In this document: positions 1 through 17,256 of the stretch, piece after piece | How the letters are laid out: each line of letters starts with the position of its first letter | Numbering within the stretch: the first letter of the stretch is position 1 | DNA from: a virus | Taxonomy: Duplodnaviria; Heunggongvirae; Uroviricota; Caudoviricetes | IMG/VR virus record: IMGVR_UViG_2778261160_000003 | Location: 1 to 17,256 of that record | Strand: one strand, 5' to 3' | DNA: 17,256 bases | The notes under the pieces: model-generated | The model's input: only the letters and a program-made list of their open reading frames with translations | Told to the model about the DNA's origin: nothing | The model's database searches: none | Translations under genes and position numbers: made by a program

Positions 1-1053
1 TTACGGGGTAATGCCAACCGCTGCCGCCACTTTGTCGCCACTTGGCAGCGTTGCCAGAGGATTGAAACGGAGCGCCGTTTCCAGATGATCCGGTGCCAGA
101 TGTGCGTAACGCATAGTCATTTTTATATCGTGGTGTCCGAGAATTTTTTGTAAGGCCAGAATGTTTCCACCCGACATCATGAAGTGCGCCGCAAACGTAT
201 GGCGCAGAACGTGTGTGAGTTGACCGCGAGGGAGCACGATAGACGTTTTTTCCATCACGGATAAAAATTGAAAATAGCAGTCTGTGAAGAAATTGAACCC
301 ATCAAGCGCCATGATCTCTTCGTAAAGCTCTTTACTGATAGGGATGCTTCTGTTTTTCTTCCCCTTCGTTCGTACAAAGGTAATTCGGTATTTGGTCACC
401 TGTGAACGAGTAAGATTTACGGCTTCTCGCCAGCGTGCGCCTGTGCTTAAGCATATCTTAACTACCAGTGCCAGAATTGGGTCCTGACGTTTGCAATCAG
501 CCAGTAATTCAACAATCTGCTCATGGGTAAGCCATGCCATCTCTTTTTCTGCGATGGTGAATTTTCGCATGTTCTCCAGTGGGTTCGGATACGACCATTC
601 GCCCAGGCGGGATAGTTCGCTAAAAACACTACTTAGATAGCTTTGCTCCAGGTTAATGGTGACCGGGCTTGCTCCTTTCTTCCATTTCTCGCTGAAGTAG
701 ATCTCACCTGTCAGGCGTTTATCTCGATAGTGGGCAAACATTTTAGAGGTTAGATCAGTTGCAAGGGGATTGCCCAGAGCGTCAACCATCAGCAGCAATT
801 TGTCATAGACATGCTGCCCAGCAGTCAGTGATTTACCATGTAGTTTGAACCATAGCTCAACCACGTCTTTCAGTGTTCGACGATCCACTGATTCACCTAG
901 CCAGGGCTTTGCTTCGGTTTCTTCCATCGTGTGACGCTCAAAAGCCAGTGCTTCGCCTTTGGTGGCGAATTGTTTACGCACACGACGCCCACTACGTCCG
1001 GCGGGGTAACATTCGCAAAGCCATTTTCCTGTGGTGAGTTTTCGTACAGCCAT
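1..1053 (-). CDS. int: Prophage tyrosine integrase (P2/186-like)
   Basis: 350-codon minus-strand ORF; ATG is revcomp of 1051-1053, preceded by GGAGGG. N-terminus MAVRKLTTG..GRRVRKQFATKGEALAFE and boxes CLSTGARWREA / HVLRHTFA / MRYAHL resemble P2 Int as I recall it. Stop codon is bases 1-3. The ORF track extends to 1131 but has no RBS there. Confidence 0.9.
   Translation of the reverse strand: MAVRKLTTGKWLCECYPAGRSGRRVRKQFATKGEALAFERHTMEETEAKPWLGESVDRRTLKDVVELWFKLHGKSLTAGQHVYDKLLLMVDALGNPLATDLTSKMFAHYRDKRLTGEIYFSEKWKKGASPVTINLEQSYLSSVFSELSRLGEWSYPNPLENMRKFTIAEKEMAWLTHEQIVELLADCKRQDPILALVVKICLSTGARWREAVNLTRSQVTKYRITFVRTKGKKNRSIPISKELYEEIMALDGFNFFTDCYFQFLSVMEKTSIVLPRGQLTHVLRHTFAAHFMMSGGNILALQKILGHHDIKMTMRYAHLAPDHLETALRFNPLATLPSGDKVAAAVGITP
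19..40. repeat. Candidate attL core, 22-bp direct repeat CGCTGCCGCCACTTTGTCGCCA
   Basis: Matches 14402-14423 at 21 of 22 positions in direct orientation (single C/T difference). Lies in the last codons of int. Confidence 0.55.
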
Positions 1054-7305: not shown

Positions 7306-7325
7306 TACTGTAAATATAAACAGTG
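7306..7325 (+). promoter_or_regulatory. LexA (SOS) box TACTGTAAATATAAACAGTG
   Basis: Perfect CTGT-N8-ACAG with an A/T-rich spacer at 7308-7323, about 40 bp upstream of the ORF starting at 7366. Confidence 0.6.
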
Positions 7326-7365: not shown

Positions 7366-7554
7366 ATGCAGGACTATTTTTTGGAGTCTTTGAAGCTCCA
7401 GCGCATTGATTTTTTTCTTAAGCTTGTAGCGGCTAGTGAGTGTAGTGATGAAGAGAAGGGGCTGGCCCTGCAGTGGGTTTCTGAACTGACAGATGAACTC
7501 ATGGCAAAAATCAGAACCCACGAATACAACCGCTCAATGGATGTCATCAGCTGA
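7366..7554 (+). CDS. Small hypothetical protein, first gene of the putative SOS-controlled operon (Tum-position antirepressor candidate)
   Basis: 62 codons, strong RBS AGGAGG 4 nt before the ATG, downstream of the LexA box. In phage 186 the equivalent LexA-controlled position holds the tum antirepressor; sequence similarity not verified. Confidence 0.5.
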   Translation: MQDYFLESLKLQRIDFFLKLVAASECSDEEKGLALQWVSELTDELMAKIRTHEYNRSMDVIS

Positions 7555-8212: not shown

Positions 8213-9295
8213 ATGATAAACGTTACAAACGAAATGCTCATTGATGTTGTCAGTGATGCTCTTACCGGGAAGAGGGAAAGTCTCCTCATGCGGTTGCGGA
8301 TTATGGCAAAAAAACTAAAAAAAGAATCTCCTGAATTAGCGGGTAAATTAGAAGATTTACTTATTAATACGGGTGGCGCAATTGCAGTCGAAAGGGCTAA
8401 TCCAGTTGTTCCTAAAATAACACCTGTTGATGCGGATACAAGACAAAAGCTGCTAGTTGAAACATATCCTGTGGTCATTGATGTTGAACCTGTTTGGCCA
8501 ACAAAAACTGATGTTCAACTGAATCGATTTGTGGCTGAGTGGGAAATGAAAGAACGCCTTTATAAAGAAGGGTTGCATCCCTCCAAATCTCTTCTTATGG
8601 GAGGACCACCCGGTGTGGGGAAGACTTTGGCTGCAAAGTGGCTCGCTTTTAAACTCGATATGCCATTGTTAACATTAGATCTCGCAAGTGTAATGAGTAG
8701 CTACTTGGGGAAAACGGGTAATAATATTAAGGCAGTCCTCAATTATGCTTCGTCATTCCCTTGTGTACTGCTTCTTGACGAATTTGATGCGATTGCTAAA
8801 AAAAGGGATGATGCAACAGATGTTGGAGAACTAAAAAGATTAGTTACAGTATTATTGCAAGCAATTGATGAATGGCCAAATACGTCTGTTCTTATAGCAG
8901 CAACTAACCATGCGGAGCTGCTTGATCCTGCTGCATGGAGAAGATTCGATCGAGTTATTGATTTTGAATATCCAACACAAGACCTAATGAGAAGATATCT
9001 CTGTTCTAAAAATATTGGAGATAGCTTATCGTACTATATTGCTACAAAACTCGAAAAAGTTTCATATGCAGTTCTTGAGAGAGCTATAAATCAAGCTAAA
9101 AGAAATGCCATTATAGAAGATATTCCTTTAAGTTCAGCTTTAATTGATGAGTTGTTAGATGGCGTGTCACTTGATGATGTTATAAAAAACATGTCAAACA
9201 ACAATGTATCACAAAGAAAAATCGCTTTAGATTTGGGGATTTCAAGGTCACAAGTACGTAAGGTTTTGACGGTTGAGGATGAAGACAATGAATGA
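8213..9295 (+). CDS. AAA+ ATPase with C-terminal HTH-like tail (cargo gene 1)
   Basis: 360 codons. Walker A GPPGVGKT (Lys codon 8621-8623), Walker B VLLLDEFD (8777-8782), sensor-1 IAATNH, second-region-of-homology-like AAWRRFDRV. C-terminal SQRKIALDLGISRSQVRKVL resembles a helix-turn-helix. AT-rich. Confidence 0.85.
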   Translation: MINVTNEMLIDVVSDALTGKRESLLMRLRIMAKKLKKESPELAGKLEDLLINTGGAIAVERANPVVPKITPVDADTRQKLLVETYPVVIDVEPVWPTKTDVQLNRFVAEWEMKERLYKEGLHPSKSLLMGGPPGVGKTLAAKWLAFKLDMPLLTLDLASVMSSYLGKTGNNIKAVLNYASSFPCVLLLDEFDAIAKKRDDATDVGELKRLVTVLLQAIDEWPNTSVLIAATNHAELLDPAAWRRFDRVIDFEYPTQDLMRRYLCSKNIGDSLSYYIATKLEKVSYAVLERAINQAKRNAIIEDIPLSSALIDELLDGVSLDDVIKNMSNNNVSQRKIALDLGISRSQVRKVLTVEDEDNE

Positions 9296-11480
9296 TAAAA
9301 ATATGCTTCTTGGCTATGGTGAAACACTAACTAACCCTGTTAAACTTAACAGAGGTGGAGGTGAAAAGAATAAACCTTACTCTTATTCAGAAAATAAACC
9401 AGTGATATCTGCTCAACTGGAAGAGTTGATTGAGGAAATTAATACCCTTCCATTGTTAGCAATGCCTGAAGGTAAGGCTGTAGCAAAATTTGTTTTGCAT
9501 CCGGCATTCTTAGCAAAAAGTTATTTTCCAGTAAGTCTTTTTGAGCGATTTTCCCTAGAAAGCATAGGCAGTAAGGCTGTAAAAGTAAAACCTAGAAAAG
9601 ATATTAAAAAAAGAGGGCGAAAAGAGGAATACACTACAGCGTGTATTTATGTTTCTGGCAAAAAAGAAAGTTTTCAATCATTCTTAGACTCTGTAAATCA
9701 AGATACCCTAACGAAAGGGCAGCAAAATGATTTTGTCACCTTAGAAAATATTTCAATACTGGAAGTTTCAGATAAAGTAAAAACGATTAATAGCAATGAA
9801 GTTATGAGTATTGAGGTCGCCTTACATACTCCTGATACAAGTTCCTCTATTGTCGATAGTTTTGAAGTTTTTGCTTCGCAAAATGGTGCTGTTATAGATA
9901 AGGCAAGAAGTATAAAAGTTAAGGGGCTAACCTTTATGCCTATTAAGGCTAGTAAAGATGTAGCTTTAAAAGTTGCAGAGTTTTCATTTCTCAGGACTTT
10001 GAGAGAACTTCCTGAATTAAGGCTAAGTGAGCCTGTTATATCACGTTCTGTGATTCAAACATCTAACCTTAGTTTACCATCTGAAGGAGCGGTAAACCCA
10101 CACATAAAGGTTGCCATATTCGATGGTGGATTGGGGATCGATGATTTCAATCCTTGGGTAACAGAGTACACTTTCAACGGTAATGCTAGTACTAATGCAA
10201 AACTTCTTTCTCATGGACAGGATGTCACCTCTACTGTGTTATTTGGTGTTCTTGGCTCTGAAACGGAAAAATTAAGTGTTCCTTATTGTAATATTGACCA
10301 TTATCGTGTACTGGATTCCAATGTTAATAACTCAGATGTCGATCTTTTTGACGTTCTGATCCGTATTAAAAGTGTATTAGAACAAAAAAAATATGATTAT
10401 ATCAATCTGAGCTTAGGACCTAGATTACCTGTTGATGACGATGACGTGCATGTGTGGACCTCAACTCTTGAGGAGATACTTGCATCAGGAGAAACACTTT
10501 GTACTGTCGCGGTTGGAAATGATGGTCAGCTGCCTGCCAAGTTAAATCGAATTCAACCACCTGCTGATTTAGTTAATGGTCTGTCAGTAGGTGCAGCAAC
10601 CTCTTTATCTGATAGTTGGGAAAGATGTTCTTACAGTTGTATTGGTCCTGGACGAAGCCCTGGCTTTGTGAAGCCTGATGGAGTTGCATTTGGAGGACAT
10701 TCTGATGAGCCATTCCAGGTATACAGCCCTATGGTTAATGGTCTTGCCCGCACTGCGGGGACTAGCTTTTCTGCTCCATTAGTCCTGAGGCAAGCAATCG
10801 CGTTAAGTGCTTCTCTAAATTACAACATTACACCACTTACGGCTAAAGCTCTGCTTATACATCATGCGGAGAGCAATAATATCAATCGTGCTGAAGTTGG
10901 TTGGGGACGATTTCCTCATGATCTTAGTGAAGTAATATTTTGTGATGATGATGAAGTTAAAGTTATATATCAAGGTACTTTAAAACCATCACAACACATG
11001 CGAGCACCTATTCCGTTTCCAGATGTACCTATGCGTGGATGTGTAAATTTAAGAGCGACATTCTGTTTTTCCAGTCCTGTTGATGCGGAACATCCTTTGA
11101 ATTATACAAGAAGCGGTCTAGAAGTAACCATGAGAAAAGGTGTTTCAGATAGTTCCGGGTTAACGTTTCCTCTTTTTAATCTAAAAAATGTTTATGCAGA
11201 TGAAAATGAGCAACGTGTTGATGCACATAAATGGGAGACTACGTTAAGAAGTGAACACAAATTTAAACCGAATGAGCTGACAAACCCATGCTTTGATATT
11301 ATCTACTATGGTAGAGACTGTGGTATGCCTATTGATGTTGACGAGTTAGAAGAACTACCATATGTTCTTGTTGTGACTTTATCTGCTGAAGAAATGCCGG
11401 ATTTATATAACCTAATTAGGCAGAAATATCAAACCTTACAGCCTATCCAAGTTCAACAGCAAATTATGTTACGTACTTAA
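9288..11480 (+). CDS. Subtilisin-like serine protease, S8 family, no signal peptide (cargo gene 2)
   Basis: 730 codons from ATG 9288; alternative ATG at 9279, ORF track starts at TTG 9273. Start overlaps the ATPase stop as ATGAATGA. Catalytic motifs in canonical order: Asp in VAIFDGG (10122-10124), His in SHGQDV (10212-10214), Asn in AVGNDG (10518-10520), Ser in GTSFSAP (10764-10766). N-terminus is hydrophilic. Confidence 0.85.
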   Translation: MNDKNMLLGYGETLTNPVKLNRGGGEKNKPYSYSENKPVISAQLEELIEEINTLPLLAMPEGKAVAKFVLHPAFLAKSYFPVSLFERFSLESIGSKAVKVKPRKDIKKRGRKEEYTTACIYVSGKKESFQSFLDSVNQDTLTKGQQNDFVTLENISILEVSDKVKTINSNEVMSIEVALHTPDTSSSIVDSFEVFASQNGAVIDKARSIKVKGLTFMPIKASKDVALKVAEFSFLRTLRELPELRLSEPVISRSVIQTSNLSLPSEGAVNPHIKVAIFDGGLGIDDFNPWVTEYTFNGNASTNAKLLSHGQDVTSTVLFGVLGSETEKLSVPYCNIDHYRVLDSNVNNSDVDLFDVLIRIKSVLEQKKYDYINLSLGPRLPVDDDDVHVWTSTLEEILASGETLCTVAVGNDGQLPAKLNRIQPPADLVNGLSVGAATSLSDSWERCSYSCIGPGRSPGFVKPDGVAFGGHSDEPFQVYSPMVNGLARTAGTSFSAPLVLRQAIALSASLNYNITPLTAKALLIHHAESNNINRAEVGWGRFPHDLSEVIFCDDDEVKVIYQGTLKPSQHMRAPIPFPDVPMRGCVNLRATFCFSSPVDAEHPLNYTRSGLEVTMRKGVSDSSGLTFPLFNLKNVYADENEQRVDAHKWETTLRSEHKFKPNELTNPCFDIIYYGRDCGMPIDVDELEELPYVLVVTLSAEEMPDLYNLIRQKYQTLQPIQVQQQIMLRT

Positions 11481-11485
11481 CAATG

Positions 11486-11509
11486 TGGAGGGGTTCCCCC
11501 TCCTTTATT
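11486..11509 (+). terminator. Rho-independent terminator after the cargo cassette
   Basis: GGAGGGG - TTC - CCCCTCC hairpin followed by TTTATT, 6 nt after the protease stop codon. Confidence 0.5.
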
Positions 11510-11518
11510 AAGCTTTAT

Positions 11519-12133
11519 CTATGTTGATTGTGGGTCATCGTTTATTAAGTTATATTTTTCAAAATGGATAATATTAATTCCTAACCATTCATTAAATTCC
11601 TGTAATCGTTTTTGTAAAGGCATTAATTCATTTCGAACAAACACTCGACTCGCCTTCTCTACATCTCCAAATCCTCCAACATTACTTGGCATAATCCCCA
11701 TCATTTGCGGCGGCACACGGTGTGCCGCCATCATGTCGTCCCGGCTCACGTTCTTGATATTCAGAAACTCATCCTTCGCCGCGACTTCTGACAACGGGAT
11801 GATCTGAAGCCCGTCCTTTTTGCCGTTAGGCGAGTACATAAACAGGTTGCGGAAGTTGCCAGGGCCTTTGGCGCTTTTCATCGCATTGCGGAGGTTGTTC
11901 ACATCCTCCTGGTTCTGCGCGGCATCGGTCATGTACATGATGAAGCCTGCATGACTGCCGTTAATATAATACTTCCGGCGGAACAGCGTGGCGGACTCGT
12001 TGAGCAGGGCTGACGGAATGGCAGAAAGATAACCTGGCAGGCCGTAGATCTCCTGGTTGATGTCAGGTTCCATCAGATGAAAAATGCTGCCTTTCGTGAA
12101 CTGATACGGCTGGGTTGTCATACCGTATTGCAC
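11519..12133 (-). pseudogene. Q: Portal protein (P2 Q-like) C-terminal fragment
   Basis: 204-codon minus-strand ORF with portal-like sequence, in the position and orientation of P2 Q. Far shorter than an intact portal; its 5' part is replaced by tail tube sequence on the opposite strand. Confidence 0.6.
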
Positions 12134-12558
12134 AAACCAGTAGGTATCCAGGTCTAACCCGCGTCGGGTGTATTTTGCCAGTGGATGTGGATCTGGGGCT
12201 TGATGACAGTGCGCTGGACACAGAATTTTCCATTGGTGGTACTGAATTGCTGCTGTTTAAGCAGATGGGCAAAGCCACGGTGGATGGCATCCAGTTGCGC
12301 TTTACCGGCTCTATCCAGCGTGACGATACCGGGGAAGTGCAGGCCGTGGAGCTTGTGGTGCGTGGACGTCACAAAGAAGTGGATTCCGGTGAGTGGAAGA
12401 CGGGCGAAAGCAACACCACCAAAGTGACCAGTACCAACAGCTACGCGAAGCTGACCATCAATGGTGAGGTGCTCTATGAAGTGGACCTTATCAACATGGT
12501 GGAAATTGTGGACGGTGTGGACCTGATGGAAGCGCACCGCAACGCCCTCGGCCTCTGA
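12115..12558 (+). pseudogene. FII: Major tail tube protein (P2 FII-like) C-terminal fragment
   Basis: ORF contains PVDVDLGLDDSALDTEF ... RFTGSIQRDDTGE ... INMVEIVDGVDLMEAHRNALGL, matching my memory of the P2 FII C-terminal half. Recognisable similarity probably begins near 12170. No sheath or upstream tail genes are present. Confidence 0.6.
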
Positions 12559-12612
12559 TGTATCTGAACGGCGCGGGATTCCGCGCCAGAACCCAATTTA
12601 CAGGACAACAAA

Positions 12613-12915
12613 ATGAGCGATAAGCAGACTGAAAAGACCATTCAACTGGATACCCCTATCAAGCGCGGTAAAACAGAAATTACCGAAATTGTGCTGCGTA
12701 AACCGCAGTCCGGTGCGCTGCGCGGTACACGCCTGCAGGCCATTATGGATATGGATGTGAACGCGATGATGACCGTGATCCCCCGCATTTCCAGTCCGGC
12801 ACTGACTGCACAGGAAATCGCAGAGATGGACCCGGCAGATCTCACAGCCATGTCGGTTGAGGTTGTCACTTTTTTGTTGAAGAAGTCGGTGCTTGCCGGT
12901 TTACCGACAGCCTGA
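12613..12915 (+). CDS. E: Tail assembly chaperone E (P2 gpE-like)
   Basis: 100 codons, MSDKQTEKTIQLDTPIKRGKTEITEI ... AEMDPADLTAM, immediately upstream of the tape-measure gene. Confidence 0.8.
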   Translation: MSDKQTEKTIQLDTPIKRGKTEITEIVLRKPQSGALRGTRLQAIMDMDVNAMMTVIPRISSPALTAQEIAEMDPADLTAMSVEVVTFLLKKSVLAGLPTA

Positions 12916-13049
12916 CGGTTGACGATCTGGTGGCAGATATCGCCACCATCTTTCACTGGCCGCCATCCGTTACTGACGTTATGCCGCTGACCGAAGTGCT
13001 GGAATGGCGGTATAAAGCGATTCAGAGAAGCGGGGCCAACGATGAGTGA
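12613..13049 (+). CDS. E+E' fusion product via programmed -1 ribosomal frameshift
   Basis: Slippery heptamer T TTT TTG at 12870-12876 near the end of E. The -1 frame is open from 12876 to a TGA at 13047-13049 (checked codon by codon) and overlaps the T start codon. Confidence 0.6.
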
Positions 13050-13971
13050 TAATAACCTGCGCCTGCAGGTCATTCTTAATGCGGTTGACAAACTCACCCG
13101 CCCATTCCGTGCTGCACAGGCCAGTTCGAAAGAGCTGGCTGGCGCAATCAGAAACTCCCGTGACGCATTAAAGCAACTCAATCAGGCGGGTAACAGCCTG
13201 GAAAAATTTCGCAAGCTGCAGGCCGATAACAAGAAGTTAGGCGACAGGCTGAACTATGCCAGACAGAAGGCTAATTTGCTTAGCTCTGAGCTGGAGGCGA
13301 TGGAACAACCATCACAAAGGCATCTTGTGGCTTTAGGTCGGCAAACGCTGGCAGTCCAACGCCTGGAAGAACAACAAAAATATTTGCAGAAGCAAACGGC
13401 TCTTGTGCGTGCAGAACTGTACCGGGCGGGAATTTCTGCGAAAGATGATGCGGGAGCAACTGCCCGTTTAGCCCGTGAAACATCACGTTATAACCAGGAA
13501 CTTTCGAAACAAGAGGCGCGGCTGAAGCGACTGGGGGAAGCTCAGCGCAGGATGAATGCGGCGCGTGCCAGTTATGCCCGTTCGCTGGAGGTGCGTGATC
13601 GTATTGCAGGTGCCGGAGCCACCACCACGGCTGCAGGGCTGGCAATGGGCGCACCAGTGATGGCGGCAGTAAAAAGCTATACCAGCATGGAAGATGCCAT
13701 GAAAGGTGTGGCAAAGCAGGTCAATGGTCTGCGTGACGATAATGGCAACCGCACCGCGCGTTTTTACGAAATGCAGGATGCCATCAAGGCTGCCAGCGAA
13801 CAGTTGCCGATGGAAAACGGTGCTGTGGACTTTGCTGCACTGGTTGAAGGTGGTGCGCGTATGAACGTCGCAAACCCTGACGACAGCTGGGAAGACCAGA
13901 AACGTGACCTGCTGGCCTTCGCCAGTACGGCGGCAAAGGCGGCAAATGCCTGTGAAGGTCAGTGGTTTTAA
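13042..13971 (+). pseudogene. T: Tail tape measure protein (P2 gpT-like), truncated N-terminal portion
   Basis: 309-codon ORF starting MSDNNLRLQVILNAVDKL with coiled-coil-like Gln/Ala/Arg-rich sequence. Far shorter than an intact tape measure; its 3' end runs into a D-like fragment in another frame. Confidence 0.6.
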
Positions 13972-14092
13972 ACAGCCGATAGATGATGCGGAATGGACCA
14001 TTACGACTCTGACACATACCGTCAGCCCGGATAACGGTTTTACGACCAGTCTGGAGCTTGAAGTGAGGATTGATGATTTCGAAATGGAATGA
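13904..14092 (+). pseudogene. D: Tail protein D (P2 gpD-like) C-terminal fragment
   Basis: 62-codon ORF ending SGFKQPIDDAEWTITTLTHTVSPDNGFTTSLELEVRIDDFEME, directly upstream of ogr as in P2. Fragment only. Confidence 0.5.
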
Positions 14093-14182
14093 TTCTTCGC
14101 AATGGAGAACTTTTAAGTTTGCAAAATGGAATAATACGGTATCATTATTGTGAATGTAGCAAAAATGGGGAGAACTCGAAAA

Positions 14183-14401
14183 ATGATGATTTGCCCACTG
14201 TGTGGAAGTGCCGCCCATACTCGCAGCAGTTTTCAGGTATCTTCATTGACCAAAGAGCGTTACAACCAGTGCCAGAACATTAACTGCAGCCATACTTTTG
14301 TTACTCATGAAACTTTTGTTCGTTCGATTGCAACGCCTAAAGAGTCAAATCCGGTTCAGCCGCATCCAATGAAATCTGGACAGGTGGCGCTCTCTCTTTG
14401 A
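14183..14401 (+). CDS. ogr: Late-gene transcriptional activator, Ogr/Delta zinc-finger family
   Basis: 72 codons from ATG 14183; the ORF track starts at 14150. MMICPLCGSAAHTRSS ... KERYNQCQNINCSHTF closely matches P2 Ogr (MFHCPLCQHAAHARTS ... KERYHQCQNVNCSATF) from memory. Confidence 0.85.
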   Translation: MMICPLCGSAAHTRSSFQVSSLTKERYNQCQNINCSHTFVTHETFVRSIATPKESNPVQPHPMKSGQVALSL

Positions 14402-14423
14402 CGCTGCCGCCATTTTGTCGCCA
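14402..14423. repeat. Candidate attR core, 22-bp direct repeat CGCTGCCGCCATTTTGTCGCCA
   Basis: 21 of 22 identical to 19-40. Begins immediately after the ogr stop codon. Confidence 0.55.
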
Positions 14424-14481
14424 TCGTTAAAAAACAGTGCTTCTAACATCATGATTTTAAACGGTATAAATTTCAGGCAAC

Positions 14482-14524
14482 AAAAAACCCATCAACCTTG
14501 AACCGAAATGGCGGGGTTGATGGG
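14482..14524 (-). terminator. Putative ybjL rho-independent terminator
   Basis: Inverted repeat CCCATCAACC (14488-14497) / GGTTGATGGG (14515-14524) with a T-run on the minus strand (plus strand CAAAAAA at 14481-14487). The 17-nt loop is larger than typical. Confidence 0.4.
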
Positions 14525-14636
14525 CTCCACAAAATGGGGACATCAAAGAAAAGCAGTGGCATTAATTAAGACTGATGCCCTGCGGAAAAGTTCTGCGGTT
14601 GTGCAAAAAAATTTCATTTTCAGGGCAACTTCAGTT

Positions 14637-16322
14637 TTATCCTAATCCTGGCCATACCATGACGATGATTGTCCCTGCCAGCGTCAGCAGGACGTTGGCG
14701 ATTGCGTAGGTGCCCGCATAGCCCAGCGCAGGGATGTTACTGCGAGCTGTATCACTGATGATCTCCATTGCCGGCGCGCAGGTGCGTGCGCCCATCATTG
14801 CGCCGAACAACAGTGCGCGGTTCATTCGCAATACATAAGCACCGAACAAGAAACAGATAACCACGGGCACAAGACTGACAATTAATCCGGCAATCAACAT
14901 CTGACCGCCAATCGCGCCCAGGCCGTTATTAATACCGCTACCGGCGCTCAGACCAACGCCTGCCATAAACACCATCAAGCCGAACTCTTTCACCATGCTT
15001 AATGCACCTTGCGGAATGTAACCGAAGGTCGGGTGGTTAGCACGCATAAAGCCCAGCATAATTCCGGCGAATAACAACCCGGCAGCGTTCCCCATGCCGA
15101 AACTGAATGTGCTGAACTGGAAGGTGATCATCCCGATCATCAGCCCAATAACAAAGAAGGCGCAAAATGCCAGCAGGTCAGTGACCTGGCTGTGAATCGA
15201 GATAAAGCCGATGCGATCGGCGATGGTTTTTACGCGACGGGCATCACCGCTGACTTGTAAAACGTCACCTTTGTTAAGCACGACGTTGTCATCTATCGGC
15301 ATCTCAATCTGGCTACGAATGACGCGGTTAAGGAAGCAACCGTGATCGGTCAACTTCAGTTGTGCGAGACGTTTACCTACAGCGTTATGGTTTTTAACGA
15401 CCACTTCTTCAGTGACGATACGCATGTCGAGAAGGTCACGATCGAAAACTTCTTTACCGTTACGGAAGCTGGGATCGAGTCGGGCATGGGCGTCGGGATA
15501 GCCTACCAACGCTATTTCATCGCCCATTTGTAGCACGGCATCACCGTCTGGATTTGCCAGAATCCCGTTACGTCGAATACGTTCAATGTAGCAGCCGGTT
15601 TGTCGATAAATACCCAGTTCACGCAGATTTTTGCCGTCGGTCCAGGCCACCAGCTCCGGGCCGACGCGATAGGCGCGGATCACCGGTAAATAAACCTTAC
15701 GGTTGGCATCAGTGTCCAGGCCACGTTCGCGGGCGATTTGCTGGGCGCTGGTCTGTAAGTCCTGATGCTGCAATTTCGGCAAGTAACGCGCACCAACAAT
15801 CAAACTCACCAGACCGATTAAATAGGTTAAGGCATACCCGAGGCTCAGATTATCCAGTGCCAGTGAGAGCTGCCTGCTTTCCATGCCGGAATGACGCAGT
15901 GTATCGCCAGCACCGACCAGAACCGGTGTCGACGTCATAGAGCCTGCTAACATACCGGCCGTCAGGCCAATATCCCAGCCAAACAGCTTACCTAACCCTA
16001 AGGCGATCACCAGCGCACTGCCAACCATCACCAGTGCTAACATTAGGTAATTTTTCCCATCGCGAAAAAAAATGGAAAAAAAGTTCGGTCCGGCTTCGAC
16101 CCCGACGCAGAAAATAAACAGCATAAAGCCAAGATTAAGCGCATCGGTGTTAATGCTGAAATGTTGTTGGCCTAATAACAGCGATACGACTAAAACGCCA
16201 ATGGAATTACCCAGTTGGATCGAACCAAGTCGTAACTTTCCGAGACATAGCCCAAGCGCGAGGACCACAAATAATAACAGAATGTAATTCCCATTTAACA
16301 ATTCGGCGACGTTTATATTCAC
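14637..16322 (-). CDS. ybjL: Putative transport protein YbjL (AAE-family transporter)
   Basis: 561 codons; sequence [33 protein letters not shown]... recognised as E. coli YbjL. Multiple hydrophobic segments and central soluble domains. Confidence 0.9.
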
Positions 16323-16591
16323 GGAGGCTAACTTCTTGTTTACTAGTAAGCTGTTGAAAGAAATGGTAATTTACGATAATGTTTTTTACCAGAATTCAGG
16401 GCGCAGATTCATTCAGCGCACCTAAACGATAGTAAAGTAACAATATATTTTACTAGTGTAATCACATTAGGTATCAACGGCTATATGAATTGCGTTGGCC
16501 TATATTAGCATGGAATGCGAAGCGGCTTTATCTTACTGAACGCCACACTGGCGAAAAATGTGTTCGATAGACGCAGTGTCAGGAGGAACGA

Positions 16592-16969
16592 GTGAAACAT
16601 AAACAACGTTGGGCGGGGGCAATCTGCTGTTTTGTCCTCTTCATTGTGGTGTGCCTTTTTCTGGCGACGCACATGAAAGGCGCTTTTCGGGCTGCCGGGC
16701 ATCCTGAAATCGGCTTGCTATTTTTCATTCTTCCTGGAGCAGTCGCCAGCTTCTTTTCACAGCGTAGAGAAGTCCTGAAACCTCTATTTGGCGCAATGCT
16801 GGCGGCACCCTGTTCAATGCTCATTATGCGGCTGTTTTTTTCACCGACGCGCTCATTCTGGCAAGAGCTGGCATGGTTACTAAGCGCGGTGTTCTGGTGT
16901 GCGCTGGGGGCACTGTGTTTCTTATTTATCAGTAGTTTGTTTAAACCACAGCACAGAAAAAATCAGTAA
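16592..16969 (+). CDS. ybjM: Inner membrane protein YbjM
   Basis: 125 codons from GTG 16592, with AGGAGGA upstream. MKHKQRWAGAICCFVLFIVVCLF... recognised as E. coli YbjM. Divergent from ybjL. Confidence 0.85.
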   Translation: MKHKQRWAGAICCFVLFIVVCLFLATHMKGAFRAAGHPEIGLLFFILPGAVASFFSQRREVLKPLFGAMLAAPCSMLIMRLFFSPTRSFWQELAWLLSAVFWCALGALCFLFISSLFKPQHRKNQ

Positions 16970-16990
16970 AGCCCTCAACGCGAGGGCTTG
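16968..16990 (-). terminator. Hairpin between convergent ybjM and grxA, probable grxA terminator
   Basis: AAAGCCCTC - AACGC - GAGGGCTTG hairpin. The T-rich tract lies on the minus strand (plus strand AAAAAATCAGTAAA at 16956-16969). Confidence 0.4.
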
Positions 16991-16998
16991 TCAGACGA

Positions 16999-17256
16999 TC
17001 AGGCGTCCAGATTTTCTTTCACCCATGCAGCAAAATCGGTATAGCCGCCGATATGTTGCTGATCGACAAAAATCTGCGGCACGGTTTCTACGGGTTTACC
17101 TGCCTTTTGTTGTAGATCTTCTTTAGTGATCCCTTCCGCACGAATATCTACATACTGATACTGAAAATCATCGCGTTCATTGCTCAATTTCTCAGCCAGA
17201 TCTTTTGCACGCACACAGTAAGGGCAACCCGAACGACCAAAAATAACGGTTTGCAT
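16999..17256 (-). CDS. grxA: Glutaredoxin 1
   Basis: 85 codons, MQTVIFGRSGCPYCVRAKDLAEKL with the CPYC active site, recognised as E. coli GrxA. Start codon is the last three bases of the window. Confidence 0.9.
   Translation of the reverse strand: MQTVIFGRSGCPYCVRAKDLAEKLSNERDDFQYQYVDIRAEGITKEDLQQKAGKPVETVPQIFVDQQHIGGYTDFAAWVKENLDA

Follow-up and report, generated by a model that had tools for sequence, protein, structure and literature searches.

A deletion scar joining tape-measure and D gene fragments beside an intact ogr in a probable defective P2-like prophage of Escherichia coli

The DNA analysed here, a stretch of 17,256 nucleotides referred to as the window, very probably carries an E. 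coli prophage of the P2-like (Peduoviridae) type that is defective and is lodged between rcdA and rybB/ybjL; in it, a deletion scar joins the beginning of the tape-measure gene T to the end of the late control gene D. Directly after the scar is an intact gene for an Ogr/Delta-type late activator, as the preliminary description of this DNA had noted. Nothing about the arrangement goes beyond the routine decay of prophages, for which E. coli K-12 already offers a known example.

Compared as a whole by megablast with 5,426 complete E. coli genomes, the window maps between rcdA and ybjL–ybjM–grxA. At the right end of the element is the attR core (CGCTGCCGCCATTTTGTCGCCA, positions 14402–14423), whose attL partner lies at about 19–42; the two form a 22-nt direct repeat with one mismatch, the flanks are the E. 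coli ybjL and rcdA sides, and because the repeats mark both ends the remnant can be sized at about 14.4 kb. The gene for the small RNA RybB (14479–14557, minus strand; Rfam RF00110, 105 bits) is separated from the attR core by 55 bp of flanking DNA, which means that this prophage family integrates right next to rybB. The stretch comprising ogr, attR and rybB (window 14100–14560) was found at a coverage of at least 80% in 1,119 of the 5,426 complete genomes (about 21%), which places the site among those most commonly occupied by the family.

The surviving genes keep the P2-like order int–cI–...–A–(hotspot)–Q...FII–E–E′–T–U–D–ogr–attR, both att cores are present, and the remnant DNA is 96–99% identical to that of intact P2-like members (96–97% for phages of the Klebsiella phage 4LV2017 type). 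Intact relatives are about 33 kb long (33,540 bp in 4LV2017), compared with 14.4 kb here. Whereas the intact elements have full-length T, U and D together with head, lysis, baseplate and sheath genes, the remnant has truncated portal, tube, T and D genes and has lost U along with the sheath, head, terminase, lysis and baseplate genes. Relative to the intact elements the window lacks 3606 bp at the T/D join and about 15 kb at a first join further upstream, the latter value being derived from element sizes.

The left 11.5 kb of the remnant is collinear with the prophage of strain Eco_23-3571 (L003), whose genes encode, in order, an integrase, CI, CII, Fil, a TraR/DksA protein, Dam, a replication endonuclease, a DinI-like protein, an AAA ATPase and an S8 peptidase. 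Between the rcdA-side flank and the integrase gene, Eco_23-3571 has a further 1.3 kb (L003 886–1638) that includes a DUF2971 gene and has no counterpart in the window (42–59).

As reference for the breakpoints we used an intact prophage at the same locus, that of E. coli 200088 (L002, NZ_CM128592.1), in which FII, E, E′, T (1025 amino acids), U (161 amino acids), D (366 amino acids) and ogr are followed by ybjL. The window has the same gene order, and its E, E′ and Ogr proteins, residues 1–301 of T and residues 319–366 of D are identical to those of the reference. Window positions 12179–13955 align with the reference from FII to the first part of T at 99.7% identity, and for positions 13944–17256, which match the reference starting at the end of D, the figure is 99.3%. 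Compared base by base in a three-way alignment, identity to T is perfect through 13945 and identity to D is perfect from 13944, with no inserted bases, so that the join falls at 13944/13945 within a 2-bp ‘AA’ common to the two sides. T and D agree at 10 of 14 positions around this point. On either side the identity to the reference is 1765/1767 nt (99.9%, over tube–E–E′–T) and 746/756 nt (98.7%, over D–ogr–attR), and a junction flanked in this way is not a product of chance.

Missing from the window are exactly 3606 bp, corresponding to L002 8768–12373, give or take the 2-bp overlap. The lost segment holds T codons 302–1025 (724 codons), all of U (161 amino acids) and codons 1–318 of the 366 of D. 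What produced the scar was a clean illegitimate deletion, and microhomology at the join is minimal; two shared base pairs are often to be expected by chance, and replication slippage and end joining are candidate mechanisms. The event joined T codon 302 to D codon 319 through the 2-bp overlap, within a short patch of imperfect similarity. The preliminary description had placed the breakpoint at 13880–13950 and had proposed that the rest of T, U and most of D were gone, to be checked by alignment to intact relatives; that alignment bears the proposal out, with the breakpoint at the right edge of the expected range, and nothing in the sequence comparisons was found to contradict this structural reading.

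Upstream of the join is an open reading frame of 309 codons with an ATG start (T′, 13042–13971, plus strand). Its first 301 residues are identical (301/301) to the N terminus of the 1025-residue T protein of the reference, and the remainder consists of eight residues encoded by D sequence (NACEGQWF) and a stop. T and D are in different frames at the join, notwithstanding that 3606 is a multiple of three, which is why T′ stops after eight wrong-frame codons. Residues 200–304 of T′ match the NCBIfam tape-measure model TIGR01760 (E = 2 × 10−17, 63.2 bits against a cut-off of 28.8), but the match covers only profile positions 2–90 of 349, and the tape-measure domain is thus cut. Full-length tape-measure proteins, which act as length rulers, have about 800–1000 amino acids in P2-like phages; T′ retains 301 of 1025 residues. 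By these alignments T′ is best described as a pseudogene fragment of the tape-measure family and not as a working member. Analogous stumps in other strains are annotated by RefSeq as incomplete tape-measure pseudogenes.

Reading T′ instead as a complete gene in its own right, for a short tape-measure-like or coiled-coil protein, has in its favour that the 309-codon frame runs cleanly from ATG to stop and that the product has no Pfam match. The probability left to this reading is vanishingly small: the identity to T is complete over the first 301 residues, the DNA homology to T breaks off abruptly at 13945 and switches to D, the TIGR01760 domain ends at 90 of 349 positions, and the missing 3.6-kb segment is present (at least 80%) in 986 of the 5,426 complete E. 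coli genomes. The proposal that the 309-codon frame is a truncated tape measure is thereby upheld, and the finding that would have spoken against it, a complete and unrelated gene at 13042–13971, did not emerge from alignment to intact T. The complete-gene reading is refuted by the T/D alignment, the cut domain and the protein identity to T.

Downstream of the join is the D fragment (D′, 13946–14092, plus strand), which comprises the last 48 of the 366 codons of the late control (baseplate hub) gene D; all 48 residues are identical to the C terminus of D in the reference. D′ has no native start codon. It forms the end of a 62-codon open reading frame with a GTG start (13904–14092, plus strand), the short frame with a D-like C terminus that the preliminary description had reported in a frame other than that of T; 48 of its 62 residues are indeed the D terminus, and the preceding 14 are T sequence read out of frame. 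Searches with D′ gave no match to any Pfam or NCBIfam model, the fragment being too short, and with 48 of 366 residues left D′ has no whole-protein homology to gpD (P2 gpD, VgrG/Pvc8-like). The stretches 13042–13971 and 13904/13946–14092 should accordingly be annotated as T and D pseudogene fragments and not as genes, and the element as a defective prophage.

The loss between T and D had been described as the second of two internal deletions, and a first join was likewise located, at 12179–12181, where portal homology on the minus strand ends at 12181 and tube homology on the plus strand begins at 12179, with an overlap of 3 bp. To its left is a Q-like portal fragment (11519–12181, minus strand), which keeps the C-terminal part of the protein and has lost the N-terminal part in the first deletion (NCBIfam TIGR01540, portal_PBSX, E = 2.5 × 10−78, profile positions 119–314 of 320; also Pfam Phage_portal); window positions 11488–12181 align to the 3′ part of the portal gene of Eco_23-3571, on the minus strand. 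To its right is an FII-like tail tube fragment (tube′, 12181–12558, plus strand) without the start codon and the first 46 codons; the 125 residues kept are identical to residues 47–171 of FII in the reference and match Pfam Phage_tube from profile position 45 to 165 of 165 (E = 3.4 × 10−39).

Between the tube fragment and T′ are two intact coding segments, both on the plus strand: E, the tail assembly chaperone gene (12613–12915; Pfam Phage_TAC_7, E = 1 × 10−18), and the E′ segment of the GpE family (12930–13049; Pfam Phage_P2_GpE, E = 1.6 × 10−20, full profile). A slippery site, T TTT TTG, can be read in E at 12870–12876, and a −1 shift there leads into the E′ frame. E, E′ and the slippery site are thus all intact, yet no tail is left to assemble. 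Going by the P2-like gene order, the first and larger deletion took away all that normally lies between Q and FII, from the terminase, capsid and other head genes to those for lysis, baseplate, fibre and sheath, and we take the four late promoters PP, PO, PV and PF to be among the losses. With both deletions in place, the element can no longer make particles.

A crude consensus search for the Ogr late promoter, TGT-N12-ACA, found no site within the prophage; the two matches in the window, at 16283 and 16938, both lie in the chromosomal flank and are fewer than expected by chance. Located at 11487–11503, after ietS and upstream of the tail-gene fragments, is a terminator-like hairpin. With no late-promoter consensus remaining and this hairpin in place, T′, D′, tube′, E and E′ are probably silent, promoterless and non-functional leftovers.

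An alternative to the deletion at T/D is that the join is an assembly artefact, formed by reads collapsed across a repeat, and that the real genome has an intact T–U–D segment. Neither this join nor the portal/tube join is spanned in any of the 5,426 complete E. coli genomes, and the exact 37-nt T/D join has no match among GTDB species-representative genomes, which is what an artefact would give. An artefact is nevertheless extremely unlikely. Over a stretch of 6930 bp that includes both joins, a contig in the Logan assembly of SRR3989635 shows 100% identity to the window; this contig was built separately, and it may come from the same strain as the window. The exact 309-residue T′ protein is on record on two contigs. 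T and D share just 2 bp at the join, too little to mislead an assembler, and comparable deletions are present in finished genomes. Since the overlap offers an assembler nothing to collapse, we take the deletion to be real and private to one lineage.

Intact at the end of the element is ogr (14183–14401, plus strand), which encodes a zinc-finger late activator of 72 amino acids identical to the Ogr of the reference (WP_000972391.1). The protein matches PF04606 (Ogr_Delta) with 78 bits against a cut-off of 26.3 (E = 5 × 10−22), and it is 51% identical to OgrK of K-12, both being 72 amino acids long and aligning without gaps, with cysteines C4, C7, C30 and C35 conserved. PADLOC gave no match for either Ogr or T′. 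The 90-bp spacer upstream of ogr is also retained and contains a candidate sigma-70-like promoter (14118–14145, plus strand; TTTGCA-16-TATCAT), found by consensus scan only and agreeing with the consensus at 9 of 12 positions; the whole region has two such matches, fewer than its shuffled versions (mean 3.9). Owing to the retained spacer and this site, ogr is potentially expressible, and the gene of the remnant could be expressed.

Activators of the Ogr/Delta family act on P2 and P4 late promoters through the alpha subunit of RNA polymerase. In the remnant, where no late-promoter consensus is left in cis, any effect of ogr could be exerted only in trans, the targets being P2-like phages that enter the cell, or P4-like satellites; ogr and its upstream spacer have survived the deletions. 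By analogy with ogrK of K-12, which has the same arrangement of a D fragment followed by ogr, it is plausible that the gene responds to, or interferes with, such phages or satellites. A passage of PMC8628076, citing Halling & Calendar 1990, states that Ogr and P4 delta both activate the late genes of P2 and of P4.

Functional ogr genes are said to have been described in E. coli K-12 and B by Slettan et al. in 1992. CI of phage 186 represses B, the Ogr homologue of that phage. If the CI of the remnant acts on ogr in the same manner, ogr would be off, since cI is intact. A comparison of the cI–apl control region (1990–2200) with the D–ogr spacer for a shared CI operator returned only AT-rich k-mers of at most 10 nt, nothing convincing.

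At this locus, a truncated T has also been fused independently to a truncated D, beside an intact ogr, in no fewer than four further lineages, represented by O139:H1 strains P15-25 and ETEC6333, AREA_497, H3 and IAL7250. In each of these a truncated tape measure abuts a truncated D, followed by intact ogr beside ybjL, and RefSeq lists the fragments as incomplete pseudogenes. In L002 coordinates the T-side breakpoints of the other lineages are at 10704, 10011 and 10017, with another in IAL7250, compared with 8767 in the window; on the D side they are at 11473, 11763 and 12212, again with another, compared with 12372. Because all breakpoints differ, these are independent events and not a shared allele. 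The fusions lie at L001 6864–9400, L004 3862–5601, L005 3749–5774 and L008 2501–4684. Three of the four have a second upstream deletion, which is within T in L001 (in frame, 1350 bp) and L004 and spans the E′/T boundary in L005. On the T side, L004 and L005 break just 6 bp apart (L002 10011 and 10017), which possibly marks a deletion-prone spot in T.

A further example is the cryptic prophage PR-X of K-12 MG1655, which consists of yegZ, a 72-codon fragment of D, and intact ogrK, next to cyaR. PR-X and the window have in common a C-terminal fragment of D (72 codons in K-12, 48 in the window), an intact 72-residue Ogr/Delta gene and an attR beside a small-RNA gene. The two D fragments are 62% identical (yegZ is a pseudogene), and at 51% identity, with the four cysteines conserved, the K-12 Ogr belongs to a different Ogr lineage. 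PR-X extends over the 3′ end of cyaR, a small RNA gene, whereas the prophage of the window sits beside rybB/ybjL; and PR-X is about 0.6 kb long, all else having been lost, whereas the remnant of 14.4 kb still has int, cI, early and replication genes, the defence pair IetAS, E/E′ and the T stump. A D tail and an intact ogr at attR thus constitute a known, recurrent end state of P2-like prophage decay. Of the carriers of the ogr–attR–rybB arrangement, comparison of the totals (986 against 1,119) indicates that most are intact across T–U–D and roughly a tenth are degraded, an approximate figure in that it sets one genome count against the other.

The preliminary description had stressed that both deletions spare regulatory genes. 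This holds as a description; it fails as evidence of selection, given that the useless portal, tube, E/E′, T and D remains are spared as well. The deletion pattern might have been shaped by selection (domestication), with the tail genes purged and ogr kept, together with regulatory, SOS and defence genes, for a benefit to the host; the benefit might lie, for example, in switching on the late genes of incoming P2-like phages at the wrong time or in control over P4-like satellites. Pointing in this direction are the independent origin of T/D deletions with intact ogr in at least five lineages at the locus, the Ogr accession WP_000972391.1, which the reference shares with three of the other four (P15-25, H3 and IAL7250; AREA_497 has WP_074152979.1), the retention of an intact IetAS pair, cI and a module with a LexA box in the remnant, and the likewise retained D fragment and ogrK of K-12.

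We nevertheless consider selection very unlikely. As the last gene before attR, ogr is the gene most easily left by position, and internal deletions spare it for that reason. That ogr is always spared is in part a circular observation, because the search for remnants, made with ogr-proximal query sequence, could find only those keeping the 5′ end of T and the 3′ end of D with ogr. Only 2 of 1767 nt on the T side distinguish the window from an intact phage, which makes the deletion recent and leaves selection no time to have become visible. Furthermore, the T–U–D segment is still present in most genomes that have this ogr at rybB, about 986 out of about 1,119. The position of ogr, the spared junk, the search bias and the recency of the event do not support selection.

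Still less probable, in our assessment, is the more specific view that the recurrent T-to-D deletions with intact ogr, at the rybB/ybjL site and in PR-X, represent a selected resident late-activator ‘sentinel’. Were this so, the late genes of incoming P2-like phages might be transcribed at the wrong time under its influence, or P4-like satellites already resident in the cell might be triggered by it, and the tail genes would have been purged to avoid their cost; the alternative is neutral decay sparing the terminal gene. With decay as the preferred reading, the scar has little importance beyond correct annotation, the idea of a leftover activator already having a precedent in ogrK of K-12. The combination of an intact ogr with IetAS, cI and the LexA-box module in one remnant makes the strain a possible test case for an influence of leftover late activators on infections by P2-like phages or P4-like satellites.

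Located at 8213–11480 (plus strand), and intact, is the IetAS anti-phage defence pair, composed of the AAA ATPase IetA (PADLOC, E = 6.7 × 10−84) and the S8 peptidase IetS (E = 1.8 × 10−48). It occupies the variable cargo position, with the replication/SOS genes on one side and the portal gene on the other; in Eco_23-3571 it is followed by IS421. A perfect match to the LexA-box consensus is found at 7308–7323 (plus strand; CTGTAAATATAAACAG), with 0.27 such matches expected by chance. A second match, at 9337–9352, is inside ietS and is probably due to chance. The box at 7308–7323 lies about 40 bp upstream of a 62-residue open reading frame (7366–7554) and of the DinI-like gene, an arrangement that fits an SOS-inducible (Tum-like) module of the 186 type.
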